A DNA stretch of 64,000 nucleotides from Dictyostelium discoideum (taxonomy: Eukaryota): NCBI GenBank assembly GCA_000004695.1, contig CM000155.2:2208001-2272000 (forward strand), written 5' to 3'. The notes below the pieces were generated by a model. The model saw only the letters and a program-made list of their open reading frames with translations. It had not been told where the DNA came from and did no database searches. The position numbers and the translations under genes are program-made. Shown piece by piece: positions 3,334-64,000 of the stretch. Position 1 is the first letter of the stretch. Each line of letters opens with the position of its first letter.

Positions 3334-5648
3334 GTCCAATGATTTTTAGTCCACATAAAGGTAATAGTGGTAGTATAGGTAATGGAAGTGATGATAATAA
3401 TAGCAATAATAATAATAATAATAGTAGCAATAATAAAAAGAATAAAAATCAAAATAGTTTAGAGAATAGTCCAATACAAAGTGTTGGTAGCATTGGTAGT
3501 GGTAATAGTGATATATTGATTGGTACAACAAATGAAAAGATGGATTTATCAGGTACACCATTAACAAAGATTAAAAAAGTTGGTGGATCAGGTGAACATA
3601 AGATTGGTCAATTATTTTCAACAGCAATATGTGGTAATGATATCACTTCAAGTATATTCTATACTGCGAGTAGTTGCACATTAAGTGCGGGTAAATATGC
3701 GCCTATCTCACTTTTGATAGTTTGTATAGTTTTATATTTATTTAGAAAGGTGTATGGTGAAGTTGGATGTGCATTACCACTAAATGGAGGTGCGTATAAT
3801 GTTTTATTAAACACAACAAGTAAGCAAATCGCATCGGTGGCAGCAGCATTGACGATGATAAGTTATGTCGCTACGGCAGTGGTTAGCGCGTCAACAGCAA
3901 TGAATTATTTACAAAACCTGTGGCAGGAATTGGATGTGTTTTGGGCGACTATTGGGCTATTGGGATTTTTCGCATTGCTGTCATTGATTGGCATAACCGA
4001 GAGTGCAGTGGTTGCATTCATTATATTCTCAATTCATATGGTGACATTGTTGATATTGGTATTTGGCGGATTTGGTATTTTTTTTTATAAACATGATTGG
4101 AGTGTATTGGTTGGCAATTGGAATGACGTTAATCCACCCGACCCCGATGGGACACTACAATGTGAACAGCAATTTTATTGGGGACAGAATTTCGCATATT
4201 GTATCTACTTTGGGTTTGGCTCAGCAATGTTGGGTGTGACAGGATTTGAAACGTCATCAAACTTTATCGAACAGCAAGACAAAGGAGTGTTTCCAAAAAC
4301 TTTGAGAAACATGTGGGCAATTGTAACGTTTTTCAATCCATTAATTAGCGTGTTAAGTCTTTGTTTCCTCGATACATGCACCATAGTCAATGCAAAGGGG
4401 TACGTATTGGCAACGGTTGCAAACGAGATATTTGGCCAATGGTTTCATATTTGGATTATAGTGGATGCAGTTTTAGTTTTGTCAGGTTCGGTTTTAACGA
4501 GTTATGTCGGCTTTGTGGGATTGGTTAGAAGAATGAGTTTGGATCGTTGTTTACCCCAATTCTTAATCGATATCAATTCATGTAGGAAAACCACTCATTG
4601 GATTATAGTATTATTCTTTTTAATTTGTTCATCACTTTATGCGATTGTTCAAGGCGCTCTATCAACATTGGAGGGTGTTTACGCGGTAAGTTTCTTGGGG
4701 GTAATGCTATTGTTTGCAGTGGGTAACATGCTATTGAAATACAAGAGATCATCATTGAAGAGAGAAATTAAAGCACCCTGGTTAGGAGTTTTCTTTGCTT
4801 CCGCGTCGGTTATATTGGGACTAATTGCAAATATCTATAAGGATCATTACATTGTTTTCTACTTTGGTATTTATTTCATGGTCACAATTTTCATTATCAT
4901 GGTAATGTTTACACGTGCCCGTTTGTTAAAGATGGTTTTATTCTTTAGTCAAATTGTAATTTGGTGGTCAGCTCCATTACGTGCAAAGGCTGCAAAATCA
5001 ATAGGTAATCAAATTAAAAATATTAATTCACAACCAATAGTTTTCTTTGCTTCAAAAGATGATACTGCTTATTTAAATAAAGCGATTCTTTATATTCGTG
5101 ATAATGAACAAACTAATTGGGTTAAAATTATACATTGTTATGATGGTCAAGATGAAGAAAATATTAATGGTAATCATCAAAATAATCATCAAAATGTTCA
5201 ATCACCACCAAATGAATCATCATCATTATTACAACAACAACAACCACAACAGCAAATAATAGAACAATCAAATAATGAAATTAAGCAAAATGGTATTGAA
5301 CATAATGATCATCATAACCAAGATGGTCATCATCATAATCATCATCATCACCATAACCACCACAATCACCACCACCATCATCATCATCATCATCATAATA
5401 TAGTACGTGAAACACATGATGATGTTGATGACTCATTCTCTCAACATGTTCAATTTTTAGATGGTTGTTATCCAAAGATTAGAATTGATTATATTAGAGT
5501 TTTTGCAAACTTTTCACCCTCAACAGTTGAAAAATTATCAATTTTATTAAAGGTACCCAAAAATTTCATGTTTATTGCGTGTCTAAAAGAAAATACAATT
5601 TTAAATATTGGTGATTTGGGTGGAGTTAGAATGATTACATCTTTTTAA
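3021..5648 (+). CDS. APC-superfamily (amino acid/polyamine/organocation) transporter-like multi-pass membrane protein with an N33 tract and a His-rich C-terminus
   Basis: Single 875-aa ORF. After an Asn-rich N-terminus with 33 consecutive Asn, there are about 12 hydrophobic helices. The first two resemble the APC motifs (…GNDITSSIFY… and …EVGCALPLNGGAYNVLLN…). The C-terminal tail contains HHHNHHHHHNHHNHHHHHHHHHH. Confidence 0.75.
3239..3340 (+). repeat. (AAT)34 trinucleotide repeat encoding an uninterrupted N33-N34 tract inside the APC-transporter CDS
   Basis: Direct reading; perfect repeat without interruption. Confidence 0.95.
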
Positions 5649-8173: not shown

Positions 8174-9210
8174 ATGATTCAAAATAAATCAACCCCACTA
8201 ACTGAATTTAAATTTACAAATAATAATTTCGAATCGACATCTTTAGAAGTAGAACCTATAAATGGAATTGAAAATGGTTTACTAATTAAGAATCTATTAT
8301 CTCATGAAGAATGTAGTTTAATACAAAACTCAATTTTTAACAGTTTGGACAATAACGAATTTGTCAAACATGTAAGTGTAGTTTGTAGTTAATAATTAGT
8401 AGTTACATTTAATAATATATTAATAAAATAAAATTAAAATTTATTTTTATTTTCTTTATTTTTTATTTTTATTTTTATATTTTTAACACAAACACAAACA
8501 TACATTCACTACTATATATATAATAGGGGTTGAGAATTCATAAAAATTCTGAAGATTTTGCAAATATTATTTATGGTAGAATTGAAAATTGTTGTGTCAA
8601 AAAATTAAAAAGAAAAAACCCTTCAAATTCAAATGAACAATTGGAGTGGAATATTGACTCTGGTATGTTTTATTTTCTTTCCCTAATTTATAATTATTAT
8701 TATTATTATTATAATTATAATTATTATTATTATTATTATAATTATAATTATTATAATTATTATTATTATAATTATTGTAATTATTATAATTATTGTAATT
8801 ATTATTATAATTTTTTTTTTATATGCTTTTTAATATTAATTATTAATAATTCTATTTTTCTAAAAAAAAAAAAAAAAAAATTTATAGTTTCACCAAAATT
8901 TAGATTTATTAGATATAATGAAGGGGAATTGTTTCCAAACCATACCGATGGTGAGGTGAAAAATGAAAATAAAATGTCATTTTTTTCAATTTTAATATTT
9001 ACAAATGATTGTGGTGTTGACTTTAAAGGAGGTGAATTTAGATTCTTTAAAAAAGATAATAACTTACAATTAGAGGAAATTACAAGAGTTGAACCCAAAC
9101 GAGGAATGGCATTGATATTTGATCACACAATTATTCATGACTCTAATATAATTACATTTGGCCAAAAACAAACTATCAGATCAGATTTAATATATAGATT
9201 ATCTAATTAA
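8174..9210 (+). CDS. 2OG-Fe(II) oxygenase superfamily protein; join(8174..8371,8527..8662,8888..9210)
   Basis: Three exons. Exon 1 ends …EFVKH before a GTAAGT donor. Exon 2 runs from AATAG| to a G|GTATGT donor in phase 1. Exon 3 follows TTTATAG| and gives VSPKFRFIRYNEGELFPNHTDGEV… KRGMALIFDHTIIHDS…TIRSDLIYR. This is the H-x-D…H iron triad plus the R-x-S 2-oxoglutarate site. Intron 2 (8663-8887) is an in-frame, stop-free (TAT)n tract, so the six-frame track fuses it as poly-Tyr. Confidence 0.7.
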
Positions 9211-9483
9211 ATTATCTTAAGATTTTATAATAGTAATAAATTTCGATTATGTTGAAATAGTTTAAACTATAAGCCTGTTTTGTCTAAAAAAAAAAAAAAA
9301 TAATATGAGAATGTAAATTTATATATATACTTTATATATTTGTTTATATATATATATATATTACACATAATCATACATACATATAATATAATATAATATA
9401 TGATATAAAATATATATATAATATAAAATATATATATAATATATAATATATTAATATAATATATATTAAAAAAAAAGAAAAAA

Positions 9484-50614: not shown

Positions 50615-50686
50615 GTTTCGATAGCTCAGTGGAAGAGCAAGCGACTGCAAATCGTTAGGTCGCCAGTTCAATCCTGGTTCGGAACT
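50615..50686 (+). tRNA. tRNA-Cys (anticodon GCA)
   Basis: The 72-nt sequence GTTTCGATAGCTCAGTGGAAGAGCAAGCGACTGCAAATCGTTAGGTCGCCAGTTCAATCCTGGTTCGGAACT folds as a cloverleaf. It has a 7-bp acceptor stem (one G-U pair), A-box TAGCTCAGTGG, anticodon loop CTGCAAA with GCA at positions 34-36, and B-box GTTCAATCC. A TTTTT Pol III terminator follows 6 nt downstream. Confidence 0.8.
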
Positions 50687-56408: not shown

Positions 56409-58712
56409 GAAATATAAATAAAAAATTATTTTACTTTTTAATTCAATTAATAACAATTCTAATTGTTTTATCAGATGGTAAATATTTAAATTATATTTTT
56501 AATATTTTATATGATTTTTTTATTAACTATTATTTTTTAAAAAGATTCATATAATAGTTTATTACCACTTGAAAAGGATATAGCAGTTATAATTAGGGAT
56601 TTATCACCACAAACCAATCCAGATTTTGAAATTGATAATCCAAATCGTGTTATAAAAGGGTTAGTTAAGGATCAATTGAATGAAGAAGATCGTAGTCCAA
56701 TTTATTGTTGTGGAGATGATCATGCACCAAATATCGATAGAAATAGATTTGTAATACATAATCAAAGTACATTTTATAGTTGGTTTCATAATCAAAAGGA
56801 TGTTAATATTGTAATTTCCAAATCATTAGTATTCACTAGAAATGTTACATCTGATGATCCAAGAATTTACTCTTATGAAAGTGATAATTTCTTTCCAATT
56901 GATAAGATGGGTTTTGAAGCAGATTCATACAATGGACCAATAAAAAAGAATCAATGGAAGGATAGATGGGGATTTCCAAGAAATTTCCATTTCTGCTTAG
57001 AGTTACATGCTTCATTTTTCTATATTGGTGGTGAATTATTCAGTTTCAAAGGTGATGATGATGTTTGGGTATTCATTGATAATCGTTTGGTATTGGATTT
57101 GGGTGCACCACATGATGTGTCTGGTCAAAATGGTCAAGGATCTGTATATTTGGATAATTTAGGTTTAGAGAAGAGTAAGAGTTACAATTTCGATTTCTTC
57201 TATTGTGAGCGTCATACAACCGATTCTCATATTATGGTTGAGACAAGTATAGATTTCAAATGTAAATACTATGACTATTGTGGTGTTTGTGAAGGTATGG
57301 GTAAATGTTGTAATCCTTCAGAGTGTTATGGTAGTTTGCCTGCATGTGGCCATTTCGAATGTCCAGGTTTAACTGATATCGCTCCAAATGTTGATTGGCG
57401 TTATCATTGTAAAGTTGTAGTTCCAAATTGTTCCCTCTCTGATACATTCTGTGTTAAACATCAATGTGACCCTGATAGTAAACAATGTGTACCATCCACT
57501 GATTATCAACCATGTCAAGGTAAATCCAATAGTTCTTGTATCGAAGCCCGTTGTGATGATAAAATGGGTGGTTGTTACTTAAAGAGTAAACCAAAGGATC
57601 AATCTAAAAATGATACAACTTGTTATCGTGAAACTTGTAATGAAGATACTAGCACTTGGGAGTATAAAGCACTTTGTGAAGATGATTCTGATAAATGTAT
57701 TTCAAAGAAATGTATTCCAAATTCTGGTTGCTCCAGTAGCGTTGTTGATTGTAATGATAACAATCATTGTACCATCGATAGTTGTTCAAAGGATACTGGT
57801 TGCATTCATGACCCAATTGAAAATTGTGTACCATGTGTTGAAGGCAATAAATGTTCAGAATCCAGTGATAAATGTCAACAATTGGAATGTAATCCATACA
57901 ATAGTACAACGGAATGTATTGATCGTACTAAAAAGAATTGTGATGATTCAAATGCTTGTACTATTGATACTTGTAATGGTGAAAGTGGTGAATGTGAAAA
58001 TACTCCAAAACAATGTCTTGCTAAAAATAAATGCTCCACTGCACGTTGTAACTCTAAAACAGGCCAATGTGATAATATCTATCATTGTGATGATGGTATA
58101 CTTTGTACTCTCGATAAATGTTCAGAAAATGGTACTTGCTATTATGAAGCAAATCCATGTGATGATGGTGATCAATGTACAATTGACATTTGTTTGAATA
58201 CTCTAACTGAAACTGGTGGTTGCTCTCACAGTGCTCGTGTTTGTGAACCAAAAAATTCATGTTTTACAAGTCATTGTGATAAAAAGTTGGGTTGTGTTCA
58301 AACTCCAATTGAATGCCCAGTTGAAGCTTTCTGTTTAATTAGTTTCTGTGATAATTCAACAAAGAAATGTATGACCGCTGATAGACCATGTATTCCTGAT
58401 GATCCACGTTGTCAATATGGTGTTTGTGATAACGATACCAAAGCTTGTATTTTTAAAGACTATGATCCATTACCATTTAAATGTCAATCTGCTGCTGTTA
58501 AAGCTGCCGTTGGTGTTGGTGCTGGTGCTGCAGCTGGTATTGCCATTGGTGGTGCAATTGCATTAGGTCTTGCTGCTTTTGGTGGTAAACGTGGTTATGA
58601 TGCTTGGAAATCCTCAAGAGATAATCAAATCCAAACTTCTTCTGAAAATCCATTATATAATCCAAATCCAAATCAAGGTGATAATCCACTTTATGCTGCT
58701 AATAATTCTTGA
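56405..58712 (+). CDS. PA14-domain, Cys-rich-repeat type I membrane glycoprotein (psi / prespore-cell-inducing-factor-like family); join(56405..56477,56545..58712)
   Basis: Exon 1 is a signal peptide, MGNINKKLFYFLIQLITILIVLSD, ending at a G|GTAAAT donor in phase 1. Exon 2 follows AAAAAG|. It has a PA14-like region (…FHFCLELHASFFYIGGELFSFKGDDDVWVFIDNRLVLDLGAPHD…YNFDFFYCERH) and then about 20 Dictyostelium-type Cys repeats (C.IDTC…, …CDDG..CT.D.C). It ends with a Gly/Ala-rich transmembrane helix (AAVGVGAGAAAGIAIGGAIALGLAAFGG) and a short tail, KRGYDAWKSS…NPLYAANNS. Total 746 aa. Confidence 0.75.
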
Positions 58713-59209: not shown

Positions 59210-60332
<1,123 letters not shown>

Positions 60333-60535
60333 AGAATCTTTTTTTTTTTTTTTGTTTTTTTTTTTTTTTTTCAATAATAAAATTTATTTATTCCAAACAA
60401 AAATATTTTTAATATTATTTTAATTGTATATTCATATCTAAACTACATTAATTAAAATTTATCTTAACAAAAAAAAAAAATAAAAATAATAAAAAAAAAA
60501 AAAAACGAAAAAAATACTCTAACTTGAAAACTGAG

Positions 60536-60543
60536 TCCCATAA
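60536..60543 (+). promoter_or_regulatory. DUSE (Dictyostelium upstream sequence element, TCCCATAA) 63 bp upstream of U3 snoRNA copy 1
   Basis: An exact match to the [A/T]CCCA[C/T]AA consensus reported upstream of Dictyostelium small ncRNA genes. An identical element sits at 62739-62746, also 63 bp upstream of U3 copy 2. Confidence 0.6.
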
Positions 60544-60598
60544 TTTAATTTTAAAAAATGAACAAAATAAAAGAAAGTTTTTTTTATTTTGAAAAGTT

Positions 60599-60809
60599 AT
60601 GACCAAACTCTTAGGATCATTTCTAGAGTATCGTCTATTAAAATTATTCATCAATAATTTTTCCTCTTTCACAGCTAGGATGATGATACACACTCACTAT
60701 ACGAAAGCGTGAAACCGTTATTATCAAATGATTCGTTTATTTGTTATTAACATTGATGACCGTCTAATTCAGGGATGAATTGGTTGTATGGTGGGATTCG
60801 TACTGGCTC
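60599..60809 (+). ncRNA. U3 small nucleolar RNA, copy 1
   Basis: About 211 nt with U3 boxes in canonical order. Box A'/A is CUCUUAGGAUCAUUUCUAGAGUAUCG (human UUUCAGGGAUCAUUUCUAUAGUGUG; yeast CAUAGGAUCAUUUCUAUAGGAAUCG). Box C' is GGAUGAUGAUA. Box B is AAGCGUGAAACCG (human GAGCGUGAAGCCG). Box C is ACAUUGAUGACCGUC (human CCAUUGAUGAUCGUUC). It is followed by a T5 run. The 3' box D is a variant (UACUGG rather than GUCUGA), so the 3' end coordinate is approximate. Confidence 0.7.
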
Positions 60810-61064
60810 TTATTTTTAATTAATTTAAAGAAAAACAAATATGTAGTTATTAATAATTTTTATGCTTTAAATGAAATGTAGTTATTAATAATTTCATAGA
60901 AAGCAAAATAATATATTTAAAAAAAAAAAAATCTATTTTATTAAAAAAAAAAAATCTATTTTATTAAAAAAAAAAAATATCATCTTTTTCTCAATTTTTA
61001 TTTTTATTTTTTTACTTTTTTTAATTTGATTCTTTTTAATTATTAATTAATTTTACACTACAAA

Positions 61065-61866
61065 ATGTCAGAAGGAGATTGTAGGTTTATTTAGTTAATA
61101 AATAAAAAAAAAAAAAAAAAAAAAAAAAAATCAAGTGTTTCTAATTTCATTTTTAAAAGTAGGTTTTGCATCTTTAGGATTAAATGAACAACTAATAAAT
61201 AATATAAAACGATATGGAATTACAAAATTAACACCTTTTCAAATGGAGGTAATAAAAGAAATTAAAGAAAACAGTAATGTTATTGTTGATTCAATTGAGG
61301 GCACAGGTAGGACAATAAGCTTAATTATTGGTACATTAGATAAGATTGATGAAACAAAACAACAACAAGAACAAGAACAACAAGAACGACAACAAACAGA
61401 TCAACAATTTTCATTTCCTCAAATTTTAATGATCTTACCAACAAAAGAGTTATCACAAACAACAAAAGTTATTTATTCATCTTTAGGAGGTGGTGAGAAT
61501 AATAATAATGACTTTAAAGTACTATCATGTATTGGTGGTGTAAAAATATCAATGGATATTGAAATTTTAAAAAAAGGTAATACTCAGATTTTATTAGGTA
61601 CACCAGGAAGAATATCTGACCTATTTTCAAGAAAAAGGTTCGATACAGATAATATTAAAATATTGGTTTTCGATGAACTTGATGAAATCCTTTCAAGAGG
61701 TTTTGAATGTCAATTGGAAGATATTATTAAACCTCTAAATAATAACAATAATTTGCAAATTATTGTTTCAACATCAGGAATTAACGAATTAACTTCAAAT
61801 TTTATAAATACTTTTATAAAGATTCCAAAGATCATTAAATCACAACAAGAACCATATAAATTTTAG
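61065..61866 (+). CDS. truncated eIF4A-like protein: DEAD-box RecA1 domain only, with the catalytic motifs substituted (likely pseudo-helicase); join(61065..61080,61163..61866) with the 5' exon tentative
   Basis: Colinear with eIF4A domain 1: GFASLGLNEQLINNIKRYGITKLTPFQMEVIKEIKENSNVIVDSIEGTGRTISLIIGTL is the Q-motif plus motif I, but GTGRT replaces GSGKT. ILMILPTKELSQ, CIGGVK and LLGTPGRISDLF follow. VFDELDEILSRGF is motif II with DELD replacing DEAD. IIVSTSG has STS replacing SAT. The ORF stops at …IPKIIKSQQEPYKF, the domain 1/2 boundary, with no downstream RecA2 exon. The main ORF lacks an ATG (GTG at 61135). A 16-nt first exon (ATGTCAGAAGGAGATT) joined via GTAGGT…AAAAGTAG in phase 1 would give MSEGDC-FASLGL…. 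Confidence 0.55.
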
Positions 61867-61985
61867 TTTACTTTTTTTTTTTTTTTAAAAAAATAAAAAA
61901 CACATTAAATATATTTTTTTTTTAATTTATTTATTGGTTTATTTGATATTAAATGTTTTCAAACTATTTATGGATATATTTTAAT

Positions 61986-62312
61986 TTATTGTTTTGTTTG
62001 GTTAATTTGATTTCGAATATTATTTAATTGATCATTGGTATTTTCCATACTCTTTATTAAAGATCTTGACAATATATCCATGATACGTGCTTTTTTATTT
62101 TCAATTTCTAATAATTCTTTCATAAATTGTGTATATTTTTGAAATTGTCTCTTATTGAAACTCAATTGTTCCTCCAAAATTTCATTCATAGTTACTAATT
62201 GTCTATTTTTATTATTAGCTTGGTTATCTAATAAATTATCTAAATTTAAAATCTTGATGTCGTTGCTATTTAAAAAATATAAAAGATAACTTTTATTTGA
62301 GTCAGATGACAT
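61986..62312 (-). CDS. hypothetical small coiled-coil protein (108 aa)
   Basis: ATG-initiated ORF: MSSDSNKSYLLYFLNSNDIKILNLDNLLDNQANNKNRQLVTMNEILEEQLSFNKRQFQKYTQFMKELLEIENKKARIMDILSRSLIKSMENTNDQLNNIRNQINQTKQ. Composition is not low-complexity and it has heptad periodicity. No recognisable family. Confidence 0.4.
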   Translation of the reverse strand: MSSDSNKSYLLYFLNSNDIKILNLDNLLDNQANNKNRQLVTMNEILEEQLSFNKRQFQKYTQFMKELLEIENKKARIMDILSRSLIKSMENTNDQLNNIRNQINQTKQ

Positions 62313-62668
62313 AAATTGTAAAATAAAATTTTAAAAAAAAAAAAAGTTCTTTCTTTTTTAAAAGAATTTCTTTTTTTTTTAATAATAGTAATTTATATCT
62401 GTAATCCATTTTTAATAAAATCTTTATATCTATATTATTTTTTATTCTTTATTTATTTTTTATTTTTTTTTATTTTTTTTTTATTTTTTTTTTAAACAAC
62501 AATTTAATTTTATTTATTTTAAAAAAAATAAAAAAAAAAAAAAAACCCAATCCTTGAGGGGGTAACCATTTTTTTATTTTCATATCATTTTGTGTATTTT
62601 TGAGTGTTCATTTTATCAACTAAATAAAAATTAAATAATTTAAAAAAATATAAAAAAAAAATTGAAAA

Positions 62669-62708
<40 letters not shown>

Positions 62709-62801
62709 CATATCCAACAATTTTAAAAAAAAACAGAGTCCCATAATTAAATATTAAAAAATGAACAAAATAAAAGAAAGTTTTTTTTATTTTGAAAAGT
62801 T

Positions 62802-63012
62802 ATGACCAAACTCTTAGGATCATTTCTAGAGTATCGTCTATTAAAATTATTCATCAATAATTTTTCCTCTTTCACAGCTAGGATGATGATACACACTCAC
62901 TATACGAAAGCGTGAAACCGTTATTATCAAATGATTCATTTATTTGTTATTAACATTGATGACCGTCTAATTCAGGGATGAATTGGTTGTATGGTGGGAT
63001 TCGTACTGGCTC
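62802..63012 (+). ncRNA. U3 small nucleolar RNA, copy 2
   Basis: Part of a roughly 295-bp direct repeat (62733-63028) that is about 98% identical to 60527-60822. The same boxes are present as in copy 1, with one substitution (A for G at the position equivalent to 60734). DUSE TCCCATAA lies at 62739-62746. Confidence 0.7.
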
Positions 63013-63199
63013 TTATTTTTAATTAAATGAAAAAAAATCAAATATTTAACCCAATTCATAAAGTCCATATATTAAATTTTCAAAATTTTTTTTTTTTAAA
63101 ATTTTTTTTTTTTTAAAATTGTTTTTTTAAAATAGAAAATGAATATATAATTAAAGAGGATGAAAATATCTATTAGATATTATTATTTTTTATTTTTTT

Positions 63200-64000
63200 T
63201 TAATCTTTATATTGAATTTCGATTGGATGAGCTTCAGTATTAAAAACATATTTATCTAATGGAACTAAAGATGATGGTTGGAAAGTTAAATAAAGGTATT
63301 TTAGTGTTTCAGCCAAAAAGAAACTTTGTTGAAAATCTTGAAATGCCCAACTATTTGACACATCGTTAAGACCAACATAACCATGTTCAGTTTTACAAAC
63401 GTCAACGATTGCTTGAAATATTTTCCAAGCCATTTCTTGATATTCTGTATTACCAGTTAAACGATATGCAACAAAGATTGATTCGATTGTTTCAGGACGT
63501 AAAATATACGAACTATCAGCTTTATAACCATTGAATCTAATATCACCAGAGTCTGGTTCAATGTAGGCTATTTCTGGTCCAAGACCAGTTGGAGTGATAT
63601 CATAGGTTTTAGCACAAGTTCTAGTTACCTTTTCACCAACCTCCATATAGAGAGCACTCTTTTCATCATCGCCAGTGATATTTGAAGCAGCGGCCAACAT
63701 AAACATACCACCAGCAAAACAAGTAAGATGTTCTTGAGTGTTTGAAACCGAGCCTCCATCTAAATTGGTAATGAAACCATCACCTTTTTTACTTACTTTG
63801 TAGAGATGTTCAATGATTGCATCGGCAGAAAGTTGGAAAAGTTCACTATATCTCTCTTCAATACCATCTTGATAGATCCACATTTTCAAGAGATATTCAT
63901 AGAACGAATCACCCATGGCACCAACGGATATTTTATTATTACAGAATCCTTTGCCATCTTGTGTGATAAAAGTTGGATATAAACCTGGAATCGAAGGTTT
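63200..64000 (-). CDS. glycoside hydrolase family 47 alpha-1,2-mannosidase (ER mannosidase I/EDEM-like), C-terminal part; the 5' end lies beyond the window
   Basis: The frame is open from the window edge: KPSIPGLYPTFITQDGKGFCNNKISVGAMGDSFYEYLLKMWIYQDG… contains the GH47 signature GDSFYEYLLK. Further on, …HLTCFAGGMF…, …RPETIESIF… and …YVGLNDV… are typical of class I mannosidases. The stop is at 63200. Confidence 0.85.
   Translation of the reverse strand, partial: KPSIPGLYPTFITQDGKGFCNNKISVGAMGDSFYEYLLKMWIYQDGIEERYSELFQLSADAIIEHLYKVSKKGDGFITNLDGGSVSNTQEHLTCFAGGMFMLAAASNITGDDEKSALYMEVGEKVTRTCAKTYDITPTGLGPEIAYIEPDSGDIRFNGYKADSSYILRPETIESIFVAYRLTGNTEYQEMAWKIFQAIVDVCKTEHGYVGLNDVSNSWAFQDFQQSFFLAETLKYLYLTFQPSSLVPLDKYVFNTEAHPIEIQYKD

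Follow-up and report, generated by a model that had tools for sequence, protein, structure and literature searches.

U3 snoRNA is essential for 18S rRNA maturation. In the 64,000-nt stretch of Dictyostelium discoideum DNA analyzed here (the window), two nearly identical U3-like sequences lie on the same strand, on either side of an eIF4A-like gene. Are both of them U3 genes with promoters of their own, how did the pair arise, and what has kept its members alike? The best explanation, and one we hold to be very probably correct, is that these are two independently promoted, functional U3 genes, the right copy having arisen by duplication and episodic gene conversion having followed; we infer that each copy is active. 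Part of the picture is already known: D. discoideum U3, its dispersed multicopy organization, and the DUSE motif have been described, and the eIF4A-like gene has been annotated. The features of the locus, from its left to its right boundary, are as follows.

59210-60332, + strand: phlp1 (phosducin-like protein 1, Q71A39); intron, 59828-59999; left boundary
60527-60823, + strand: left repeated U3 unit: promoter (72 nt), RNA (209 nt), and 3' flank (~16 nt)
60599-60807, + strand: left U3 snoRNA gene, 209 nt, G at nt 137; RF00012, 90.1 bits, model positions 1-219
61065-61866, + strand: eIF4A-like gene, 240 aa, single copy, Q54CH6 / XP_629440.1 (AX4); exon 1, 61065-61080; intron, 61081-61159; exon 2, 61160-61866
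61986-62312, − strand: DDB_G0292916 (Q54CH5), a 108-aa ORF lacking Pfam matches and seen only in D. discoideum-type genomes
62730-63026, + strand: right repeated U3 unit, 293/297 identical to 60527-60823
62802-63010, + strand: right U3 snoRNA gene, 209 nt, A at nt 137; RF00012, 90.2 bits, model positions 1-219
63200-63916, − strand: last exon of the GH47 alpha-1,2-mannosidase gene; right boundary

Both window copies are U3 snoRNA genes

Both window copies are U3 snoRNA genes. The Rfam U3 model, RF00012, covers each over its full length (E 2e-18), and the covariance-model check that an earlier note on this DNA had proposed was passed by a wide margin, the gathering score of the model being 34 bits; seven further copies in related genomes also match the full model, at 85 to 89 bits. 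The RNA had been put at about 211 nt, which is close: the Rfam match gives 209 nt and GenBank V00190, in which D. discoideum U3 occupies nt 62-271, gives 210. [quoted passage not shown] D2 RNA/V00190 and the window genes belong to the same length class (210 vs 209 nt), and both are multicopy and dispersed.

Our comparisons drew on 14 U3 copies from five species, with subsets of nine for alignment and structure and 12 for the 5' domain. Boxes A'/A, C', B, and C are present in the order first proposed for them, together with GAC. In the left copy, GAC lies at nt 3-5, box A at about nt 14-31, C' (UGAUGA) at nt 83-88, B (GCGUGAA) at nt 109-115, and C (UGAUGA) at nt 156-161. The 5' domain with its GAC, A', and A boxes (AUGACCAAACUCUUAGGAUCAUUUCUAGAGUA, aligned to the RF00012 consensus aaGaccauACUUucAGGaAUCAUuUCUgUAGUa) is close to invariant, with only 2 variable sites in nt 1-70 across the 12 copies. 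Box B corresponds to the consensus AGCGUGAA, UGAUGACCGU spans nt 156-165, and the GCG/CGU stem that closes the B/C motif is paired in 9/9 copies. When the Rfam structure was mapped onto the nine homologous copies, 86% of cells paired vs 32 to 45% with the partners slid; helices 3, 4, 5, and 7 were 100% paired, compensatory changes on both sides were seen at four base pairs, and no helix was broken. The minimum-free-energy fold of the RNA alone was only modestly better than that of shuffles (z = −2.1). Judging by family membership, the near-invariant 5' 70 nt (GAC, A', A, and the hinges) would pair with the 5' ETS and 18S of pre-rRNA in the small-subunit processome, while U3 snoRNP proteins would bind the 3' domain, which consists of helices and the B/C and C'/D motifs.

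The window genes share with the U3 family (RF00012) the GAC/A'/A, C', B, and C boxes in order, the terminal stem, and the B/C stem, and differ from it in having UCGUA for CUGA. This UCGUA sits at the box D position (nt 200-204), where UCUGA would be canonical, and CUGA was found in none of the 14 Dictyostelium copies examined; RF00012 still matched the window copies. Box C' is present; since box D reads UCGUA in every copy, the C'/D kink-turn would be noncanonical. The earlier note saw the weakest point of the U3 assignment in a variant box D, UACUGG; it was right that the box is noncanonical but set its limits wrongly, because CUGGC is the 3' strand of the terminal stem, in which nt 76-80 pair with nt 205-209 (GCUAG/CUGGC). 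D. dimigraforme backs this stem, as one pair in it has changed on both sides, from G-C to C-G; a reading of CUGG as box D, with the stem formed after it, fails in the same species.

Extent of the repeat and the genes between its copies

The two genes are embedded in a direct repeat of 297 bp, both copies of which lie on the + strand at an in-register offset of 2,203 bp. Three of the 4 mismatches are in the promoter part (60532, 60546, and 60550); the fourth, which is the sole mismatch inside the RNA, sets G at 60735 against A at 62938 (U3 nt 137) in a hairpin loop. A direct repeat of about 295 bp had thus been recognized correctly, but its second copy, placed at 62733-63028, was ~3 nt out of register, and it had been credited with one internal mismatch instead of four. 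Similarity begins abruptly at 60527 and fades on the right by ~60845. The idea that the duplicated unit might exceed the RNA and include the protein genes had to be abandoned: the unit consists of promoter, RNA, and ~16 nt, and the helicase gene and the 108-aa ORF each match only once per locus. Both protein genes between the copies are single-copy passengers outside the repeat.

That an eIF4A-like half-helicase lies between the U3 copies was borne out: the protein has RecA domain 1 only, and UniProt Q54CH6 is entered as "Putative eukaryotic initiation factor 4A-like protein." Proteins encoded in the window, this one among them, agree 100% with those of D. discoideum. Its DEAD domain (PF00270) stands alone at residues 30-210 of 240 (Pfam E 5e-26), and its closest solved relatives are eIF4A-I N-terminal domains (E 1.6e-24), which RecA domain 1 matches along its whole length; motif Ia (PTKEL), motif Ib (TPGR), and the Q-motif region can be made out. 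Unlike eIF4A and DEAD-box helicases, Q54CH6 has no RecA domain 2 (Helicase_C), carries a variable poly-Q insert, and has arginine in place of the motif I lysine. The second domain is absent in every genome in which the ORF was translated, the protein ending after domain 1, and three catalytic motifs deviate: motif I is GTGRT (vs GSGKT), motif II is DELD (vs DEAD), and motif III is STS (vs SAT). Because of this missing domain and these altered motifs, Q54CH6 would, on its sequence, be very unlikely to act as an ATPase or helicase. The reading frame is unbroken in each genome for which we translated it, and dN/dS is 0.28 to 0.32; the 108-aa ORF of DDB_G0292916 has a dN/dS of 0.56 vs D. cf. discoideum. 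The eIF4A-like protein also resembles CMS1 and UTP25, processome proteins of a degenerate DEAD-like type, though weakly and below the Pfam threshold.

Origin of the pair and placement of the helicase gene

The site between phlp1 and the GH47 gene holds no U3 in D. purpureum, where the gap is 178 bp; one U3 each in D. firmibasis, D. citrinum, and D. dimigraforme; and two each in the window, D. cf. discoideum, and a second D. discoideum assembly, in which the outer flanks are orthologous. The right copy was seen only in these D. discoideum-type genomes. Wherever the eIF4A-like gene was found, it lies 170 to 260 bp downstream of a U3 gene and on the same strand: at the phlp1|GH47 U3 locus in D. 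discoideum, D. citrinum, and D. dimigraforme, and, in D. firmibasis, at the U3 locus between SNF2 and VMP1, where it is flanked by two U3 genes and the phlp1 site keeps a solo U3. For D. firmibasis VMP1, a constrained search of splice models left a single solution, and it turned out to be exact. D. discoideum has at least 5 U3 copies on two chromosomes; U3 genes upstream of VMP1 occur without the helicase gene in D. citrinum and D. discoideum, and the VMP1-locus copies of D. discoideum are duplicated within a 4.8-kb segmental unit.

These distributions suggest that the left U3 and the downstream eIF4A-like gene form the older unit, which D. citrinum and D. dimigraforme also have between phlp1 and GH47, and that the right copy is a ~300-bp duplication of promoter, RNA, and short 3' flank that would have occurred in the lineage to D. 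discoideum-type genomes; this order of events rests on a species tree from sequence similarity at these loci. For the right flank, a search for homologues of the 238-aa GH47 exon recovered neither the protein of D. discoideum itself nor a D. firmibasis orthologue, and the GH47 match in D. purpureum was a nonsyntenic paralogue with no U3 nearby; phlp1 gave synteny instead. A circular permutation of a tandem [U3-helicase-ORF] array in D. citrinum was also considered. It draws on a blastn alignment of ~100 nt upstream of the D. citrinum U3 with the region upstream of the right D. discoideum copy, and we rejected it as unreliable because the aligned stretch is a poly-T/poly-A tract and the 177-aa ORF of D. 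citrinum has no similarity to the 108-aa ORF.

It is conceivable, though rather improbable in our judgment, that the U3-helicase-U3 pair is ancestral and existed before the discoideum complex diversified; its right copy would then have disappeared from D. citrinum and D. dimigraforme, and the D. firmibasis helicase gene would have left the site by recombination between the two U3 genes, with a solo U3 staying behind, and re-integrated into the U3 upstream of VMP1. One excision followed by one integration would explain both D. firmibasis loci, that is, the solo U3 between phlp1 and GH47 and the U3-helicase-U3 arrangement between SNF2 and VMP1 on another chromosome; the VMP1-upstream U3 genes that lack a helicase in D. 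citrinum and D. discoideum fit as well, as does the homology that continues, in every species, without a break from DUSE across U3 and on to the stop codon of the helicase gene. This history, however, requires two independent losses of the right copy, and the segment from helicase to right U3, which contains the 108-aa ORF in D. discoideum, has no detectable homology between D. discoideum and D. firmibasis. Moreover, the promoters of the D. firmibasis cassette both look VMP1-type in their proximal 30 nt, though these nucleotides lie inside a local conversion tract.

The placement of the helicase gene fits excision and re-integration, or ectopic conversion, via recombination between U3 genes. 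In this view the dispersed U3 genes may serve as mobile stretches of homology by which linked DNA passes from one chromosome to another, a possibility that we raise tentatively and with some doubt.

Promoter, 3' flank, and polymerase

The conserved elements outside the RNA are the following.

60536-60543, + strand: DUSE TCCCATAA of the left U3 gene, first base 63 nt before U3 nt 1
62739-62746, + strand: DUSE TCCCATAA of the right U3 gene, first base 63 nt before U3 nt 1
60808-60838, + strand: conserved 3' flank TCTTATTTTTAATTAATTTAAAGAAAAA, which includes a T run; candidate signal for 3'-end formation or termination

The earlier note placed a DUSE exactly 63 bp before each copy, and it is indeed there at both genes; sequence and spacing agree with the element [AT]CCCA[AT]AA that has been described ~63 bp ahead of many ncRNA genes in Dictyostelium (PMC3188802). 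The same 8-mer occurs 62 to 65 nt upstream in 14/14 U3 copies, as counted to Rfam nt 1 and not to a mapped start site, compared with ~60 to 63 nt in the published accounts (Hinas et al. 2006; Sucgang et al. 2011; Kjellin et al. 2021), and nothing material differs. In the literature that describes DUSE for spliceosomal snRNAs and Class I/II RNAs, we found no explicit statement linking it to U3, which is probably included among "many ncRNA genes." The significance of the motif rests on its fixed position and conservation, not on its count: TCCCATAA was found 6 times in the whole window vs 9.6 expected and is not enriched, and TCCCATAAT is invariant in 9/9 aligned copies, while the remaining upstream sequence differs at 12 to 27 of 62 positions between loci and species. 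Each U3 unit also has a TATA-like ATAAAAG at about −30. Each is predicted to have its own promoter, composed of DUSE at −63 and the TATA-like element, and to give rise to an RNA of 209 to 210 nt. On the 3' side, a close variant of the flank, YCTTnTTTTAATTAATTTAA[A/T]GAAAAAAA, follows all 14 copies, in five species and at two loci.

Plant U3 genes are transcribed by RNA polymerase III. Transcription of the Dictyostelium U3 genes by this enzyme in place of polymerase II would be compatible with a run of 4 to 7 T residues that begins within a few nucleotides of the 3' end in 14/14 copies, with the TATA-like element, and with DUSE, which is reported ahead of both Pol II and Pol III genes (PMC7919456). 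We nevertheless think it unlikely: T runs are common in a genome of ~78% A+T, and the 14 copies are not independent samples because of gene conversion (see below). The D2 RNA of Wise and Weiner, from their work of 1980/1981, is moreover said to bear a trimethylguanosine cap, typical of Pol II snRNAs, which argues for polymerase II.

Duplication and gene conversion

The earlier note left the choice between recent duplication and gene conversion open; the locus survey, together with lineage-specific changes shared by the two copies, indicates that both apply. A single RNA site separates left from right in the window, and none does in D. cf. discoideum. Orthologous copies are further apart, with 2 to 3 RNA sites and 5 to 7 of 62 promoter sites differing between the window and D. 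cf. discoideum, and the changes specific to D. cf. discoideum are common to both its copies. The second D. discoideum assembly has 5 RNA sites at which left and right differ, and its left copy alone carries the G137 that also marks the left copy of the window, a mosaic pattern. Paralogs within a genome are therefore closer than orthologs between genomes, the duplication is older than the split, and variants are mosaic, the combination by which we recognize gene conversion. Since the duplication, the left and right copies appear to have been kept alike by conversion acting in episodes.

With just 4 differences in 297 bp, and with the right copy absent at phlp1|GH47 in D. citrinum, D. dimigraforme, and D. 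firmibasis, one might instead ascribe the near-identity to a very recent duplication in this strain and dispense with gene conversion. We consider this highly improbable. The two-copy layout, with orthologous outer flanks and the 108-aa ORF, is also present in D. cf. discoideum and the second D. discoideum assembly, whose intergenic DNA is only 82 to 84% identical to the window, so the duplication predates these lineages; furthermore, left and right are 0 to 1 nt apart in two lineages and 5 nt apart in a third, and lineage-specific substitutions are found in both copies. That one copy is an inactive pseudogene, or the second an assembly artifact, is scarcely credible: both retain DUSE, every box, and every helix, with their sole RNA difference in a hairpin loop, and the right copy has unique flanks and is present in three independent assemblies.

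The likeness of paralogs within a genome is the same as that in the concerted evolution of multicopy snRNA and snoRNA genes, such as Euglena U3 (PMC2784804) and the vertebrate U1/U2 arrays; here conversion reaches into the promoter on one side and a short 3' flank on the other. Unlike tandem arrays, the window pair is local, two copies 2.2 kb apart with unrelated genes between them.

Implications

As a finding, the U3 pair is sound but ordinary and brings nothing new; its comparative by-products are of modest value. Among these are a phylogenetic footprint of the U3 promoter (DUSE, the −30 element, and the conserved 3' flank) and a box D that is noncanonical in all Dictyostelium copies examined. 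The U3-mediated relocation of a neighboring, presumably catalytically dead eIF4A-derived gene is a hint, again of modest value. A bolder version would have the eIF4A-like gene depend on the U3 unit, through read-through or a shared promoter, or its product work with the U3 snoRNP; the resemblance to CMS1 and UTP25 hints in this direction. On a small scale, the window pair also illustrates cleanly how episodic gene conversion can take in the promoter of a snoRNA gene.

Two U3 genes in a short direct repeat

An Rfam scan of the whole window returned exactly two matches to U3 (RF00012), both on the plus strand and both well above the gathering score of 34; the identification in the earlier note, which had proposed this check, is correct. 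The locus comprises the following features, and the proteins encoded around the repeat are those of D. discoideum.

60599-60807, plus strand: U3, left copy (RF00012, 90.1 bits, model positions 1-219)
62802-63010, plus strand: U3, right copy (RF00012, 90.2 bits, model positions 1-219)
60808-60838 and 63011-63041: 3' flanks of the two copies (same position in the retrieved regions L004 and L008-L014)
61065-61080 (exon 1), 61081-61159 (intron), 61160-61866 (exon 2): eIF4A-like gene, model confirmed by 100% protein identity
Between the U3 copies, minus strand: 108-aa ORF (DDB_G0292916, Q54CH5), D. discoideum-type genomes only
Left neighbor: phlp1 (Q71A39)
Right neighbor: GH47 mannosidase gene

Intervals 60527-60823 and 62730-63026 form a direct repeat in register by sequence, repeat finder (family D6; 300 nt, 98%, spacing 2203), and pairwise alignment, with a left edge that is sharp at 60527 and a right edge that fades by ~60845. 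The earlier note had recognized the repeat, although its second interval was ~3 nt out of register; its "one internal mismatch" holds for the RNA alone (60735 G versus 62938 A) but not for the whole repeat, which has four (also 60532, 60546, and 60550, upstream). It had further suggested that the duplication unit may extend beyond the RNA, as two small protein genes lie between the copies, but the ~300-bp unit excludes both, and locus-by-locus searches gave one match per locus for each of them.

U3 structure and the variant box D

Taken directly from the sequence and the model alignment, the U3 elements are GAC (nt 3-5), box A (UAGGAUCAUUUCUAGAGUA, about nt 14-31), box C' (UGAUGA, nt 83-88), box B (GCGUGAA, nt 109-115), box C (UGAUGA, nt 156-161), and a terminal stem (GCUAG, nt 76-80, with CUGGC, nt 205-209). 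Folding the RNA alone gives essentially the same 3' domain, with a modest z of -2.1. When the Rfam structure is mapped onto the columns of a nine-copy alignment, 86.4% of cells are paired, compared to 32 to 45% when the 3' partners are slid. Helices 3, 4, 5, and 7 are paired in all nine sequences, and four pairs show changes on both sides, including G-C to C-G in the D. dimigraforme terminal stem and C-G to U-A at nt 102/190. Such covariation across nine related sequences supports, short of proof, the view that the copies are functional. Among twelve copies, the first 70 nt of U3 vary at two sites only, as would be anticipated for a guide constrained by its match to pre-rRNA.

Box D is noncanonical in all 14 copies. 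The model alignment places UCUGA-GcGGu on UCGUA-CUGGC; in D. dimigraforme, GCUAG is replaced by CUCAG on the 5' strand and CUGGC by CUGGG on the 3' strand, with all five pairs kept, which argues that CUGGC is stem and that UCGUA occupies the box D position. The alternative, in which CUGG serves as box D and is followed by a stem, would be broken in D. dimigraforme. Thus, earlier concern over a variant box D was justified (UCGUA in all 14 copies), but its delimitation as UACUGG was wrong. Snu13 is reported to bind the C'/D motif of U3 with lower affinity than the B/C motif (PMC5499572), which would make a degenerate D box less surprising.

Promoter and 3' flank

In each window copy TCCCATAA begins 63 nt before nt 1, exactly the distance noted earlier, and it lies 62 to 65 nt upstream in 14 of 14 U3 copies. 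TCCCATAAT is invariant across the nine aligned copies, while the remaining upstream region shows differences at 12 to 27 of 62 positions when loci and species are compared. Near -30 there is a TATA-like ATAAAAG. The published DUSE motif, [AT]CCCA[AT]AA, which TCCCATAA fits, sits ~63 bp ahead of many ncRNA genes in Dictyostelium (PMC3188802); it is reported to be needed for Class I RNA expression and to precede Pol II as well as Pol III genes (PMC7919456).

A ~30-nt 3' flank, YCTTnTTTTAATTAATTTAA[A/T]GAAAAAAA, with a run of T4 to T7, is conserved in 14 of 14 U3 copies from five species and two loci. The literature examined does not describe it, and we consider it a candidate signal for 3'-end formation or termination. 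Both the conserved T runs and the element near -30 would fit transcription of these U3 genes by Pol III; however, D2 RNA reportedly carries a trimethylguanosine cap (Wise and Weiner, 1980/1981), which would favor Pol II.

U3 loci, duplication, and gene conversion

Orthologous regions were fetched via the neighboring proteins and scanned with the U3 sequence and Rfam.

U3 and intervening genes between phlp1 and the GH47 gene (genome; U3; eIF4A-like gene; 108-aa ORF)
D. purpureum; none (178-bp gap); no; no
D. firmibasis; one; no; no
D. dimigraforme; one; yes, downstream of U3; no
D. citrinum; one; yes, downstream of U3; no
D. cf. discoideum; two; yes; yes
Second D. discoideum-labelled assembly; two; yes; yes
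Window; two; yes; yes

Most of the phlp1 intron (59828-59999) is an extended (TAA)n microsatellite (about 59836-59944), and a gene for a large protein, rich in cysteine and bearing PA14 and Dicty_CTDC repeats (56676-58712; prestalk/extracellular-matrix type), adjoins phlp1 in all species examined. A tRNA-Cys (GCA) gene ~10 kb left of the U3 pair (50615-50686) looks syntenic with a D. firmibasis tRNA of equal Rfam score (L009, 5242-5313) at comparable distance from phlp1. D. citrinum has ~1.7 kb extra between phlp1 and U3 (L010, 11032-12790), in which a 177-aa minus-strand gene is called; this stretch, missing from the other species compared, may be an insertion.

U3 genes also occur upstream of VMP1, on a different chromosome. 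This second locus holds one U3 in D. citrinum; U3, the eIF4A-like gene, and U3 in D. firmibasis; and at least three U3 copies in D. discoideum (L012, CM142510.1, 1-10000: 4345-4553, 9122-9330, and a partial copy at 2-82). These last lie within a ~4.8-kb tandem segmental duplication of 86 to 99% identity, a large unit in contrast to the 300 bp in the window; the duplication further includes two paralogous ORFs, of 913 and 939 aa, without a Pfam match. The D. discoideum total thus comes to at least five U3 genes, spread over two chromosomes, in agreement with the 1980 description of U3 (D2 RNA) as a dispersed multigene family. A D. discoideum U3 sequence is GenBank V00190 nt 62-271 (cited in PMC2784804).

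The right copy occurs only in D. discoideum-type genomes. The U-A pair at nt 102/190 is present in both window copies and elsewhere only in phlp1-locus copies of D. discoideum-type genomes; thus, the right copy is most simply seen as a local duplicate of the left. The window, D. cf. discoideum, and the second assembly have the order U3, eIF4A-like gene, 108-aa ORF, U3 and orthologous outer flanks, yet their intergenic DNA is only 82 to 84% identical, which places the duplication before their split. Left and right RNAs differ at one position in the window, none in D. cf. discoideum, and five in the second assembly, while orthologous copies of the window and D. cf. discoideum show 2 to 3 RNA differences plus 5 to 7 at 62 promoter sites. 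Changes specific to D. cf. discoideum are present in both its copies, and G137 is common to the left copies of two lineages. Judged from these sequences, the mosaic is a signature of episodic gene conversion; both parts of the "recent duplication or gene conversion" proposed earlier apply, the duplication itself being older than the split of these lineages.

The conversion tract in D. discoideum reaches the promoter, out to -72, whereas that of the D. firmibasis cassette spans only about -30 to +225, because its two upstream regions differ at 22 of 73 positions. The three D. firmibasis U3 copies, on two chromosomes, have 6 to 7 species-specific states in common, indicating that some exchange occurs between loci too.

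The eIF4A-like gene and its possible relocation

The eIF4A-like protein is 100% identical to KAM9944501.1 and clusters with AX4 XP_629440.1/Q54CH6, "Putative eukaryotic initiation factor 4A-like protein." It consists of RecA domain 1 only (Pfam DEAD, E 5e-26), and its best matches among solved structures are eIF4A-I N-terminal domains, as its earlier description as a half-helicase implied. Because its motifs in the window are GTGRT (I), DELD (II), and STS (III), it should not hydrolyze ATP. Every genome in which this ORF was translated keeps a noncatalytic motif I, GTGR[T/S], with DELD, DEVD, or YRLD as motif II; the variable poly-Q insert is a few residues long in D. firmibasis and reaches ~45 in D. 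citrinum. The gene was located at L004 10001-10782 and in L008, L010, L011, and L014. An ORF intact wherever translated and a dN/dS of ~0.3 in four compared genomes mark it as a maintained gene. Weak, subthreshold Pfam matches to CMS1 and UTP25, two proteins of the U3 processome whose DEAD-like folds are degenerate, most likely reflect cross-matching between members of one fold.

Constraint on the 108-aa ORF is weak (dN/dS 0.56). Short-read Logan contigs for this ORF and the eIF4A-like gene, L002 and L003 (SRR28564542 and SRR26869258), break at homopolymer tracts (~window 61108 and 62477) rather than at the U3 repeats. Two short tandem duplications, at 60842-60895 (atgtagttattaataattt twice) and 60918-60966 (aaaaaaatctattttattaaaaaaaaaa twice), lie in the DNA that separates the left U3 from the eIF4A-like gene.

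In all five species, homology extends without a break from the DUSE across U3 to the eIF4A-like stop codon, so the gene always has a U3 gene a short distance upstream. In D. firmibasis, however, the eIF4A-like gene sits between two U3 copies at the VMP1 locus, and the phlp1 locus has a solo U3. Relocation by U3 × U3 recombination, through an excised circle that reintegrated or through ectopic conversion, would account for this arrangement. Flank comparisons gave no direction for such a move, since conversion overwrote the proximal promoter regions.

The U3/D2 genes, the DUSE promoter, and the annotated eIF4A-like gene are all known objects, and the U3 mechanism here is presumably the standard one; the comparative by-products are minor, though new to us.
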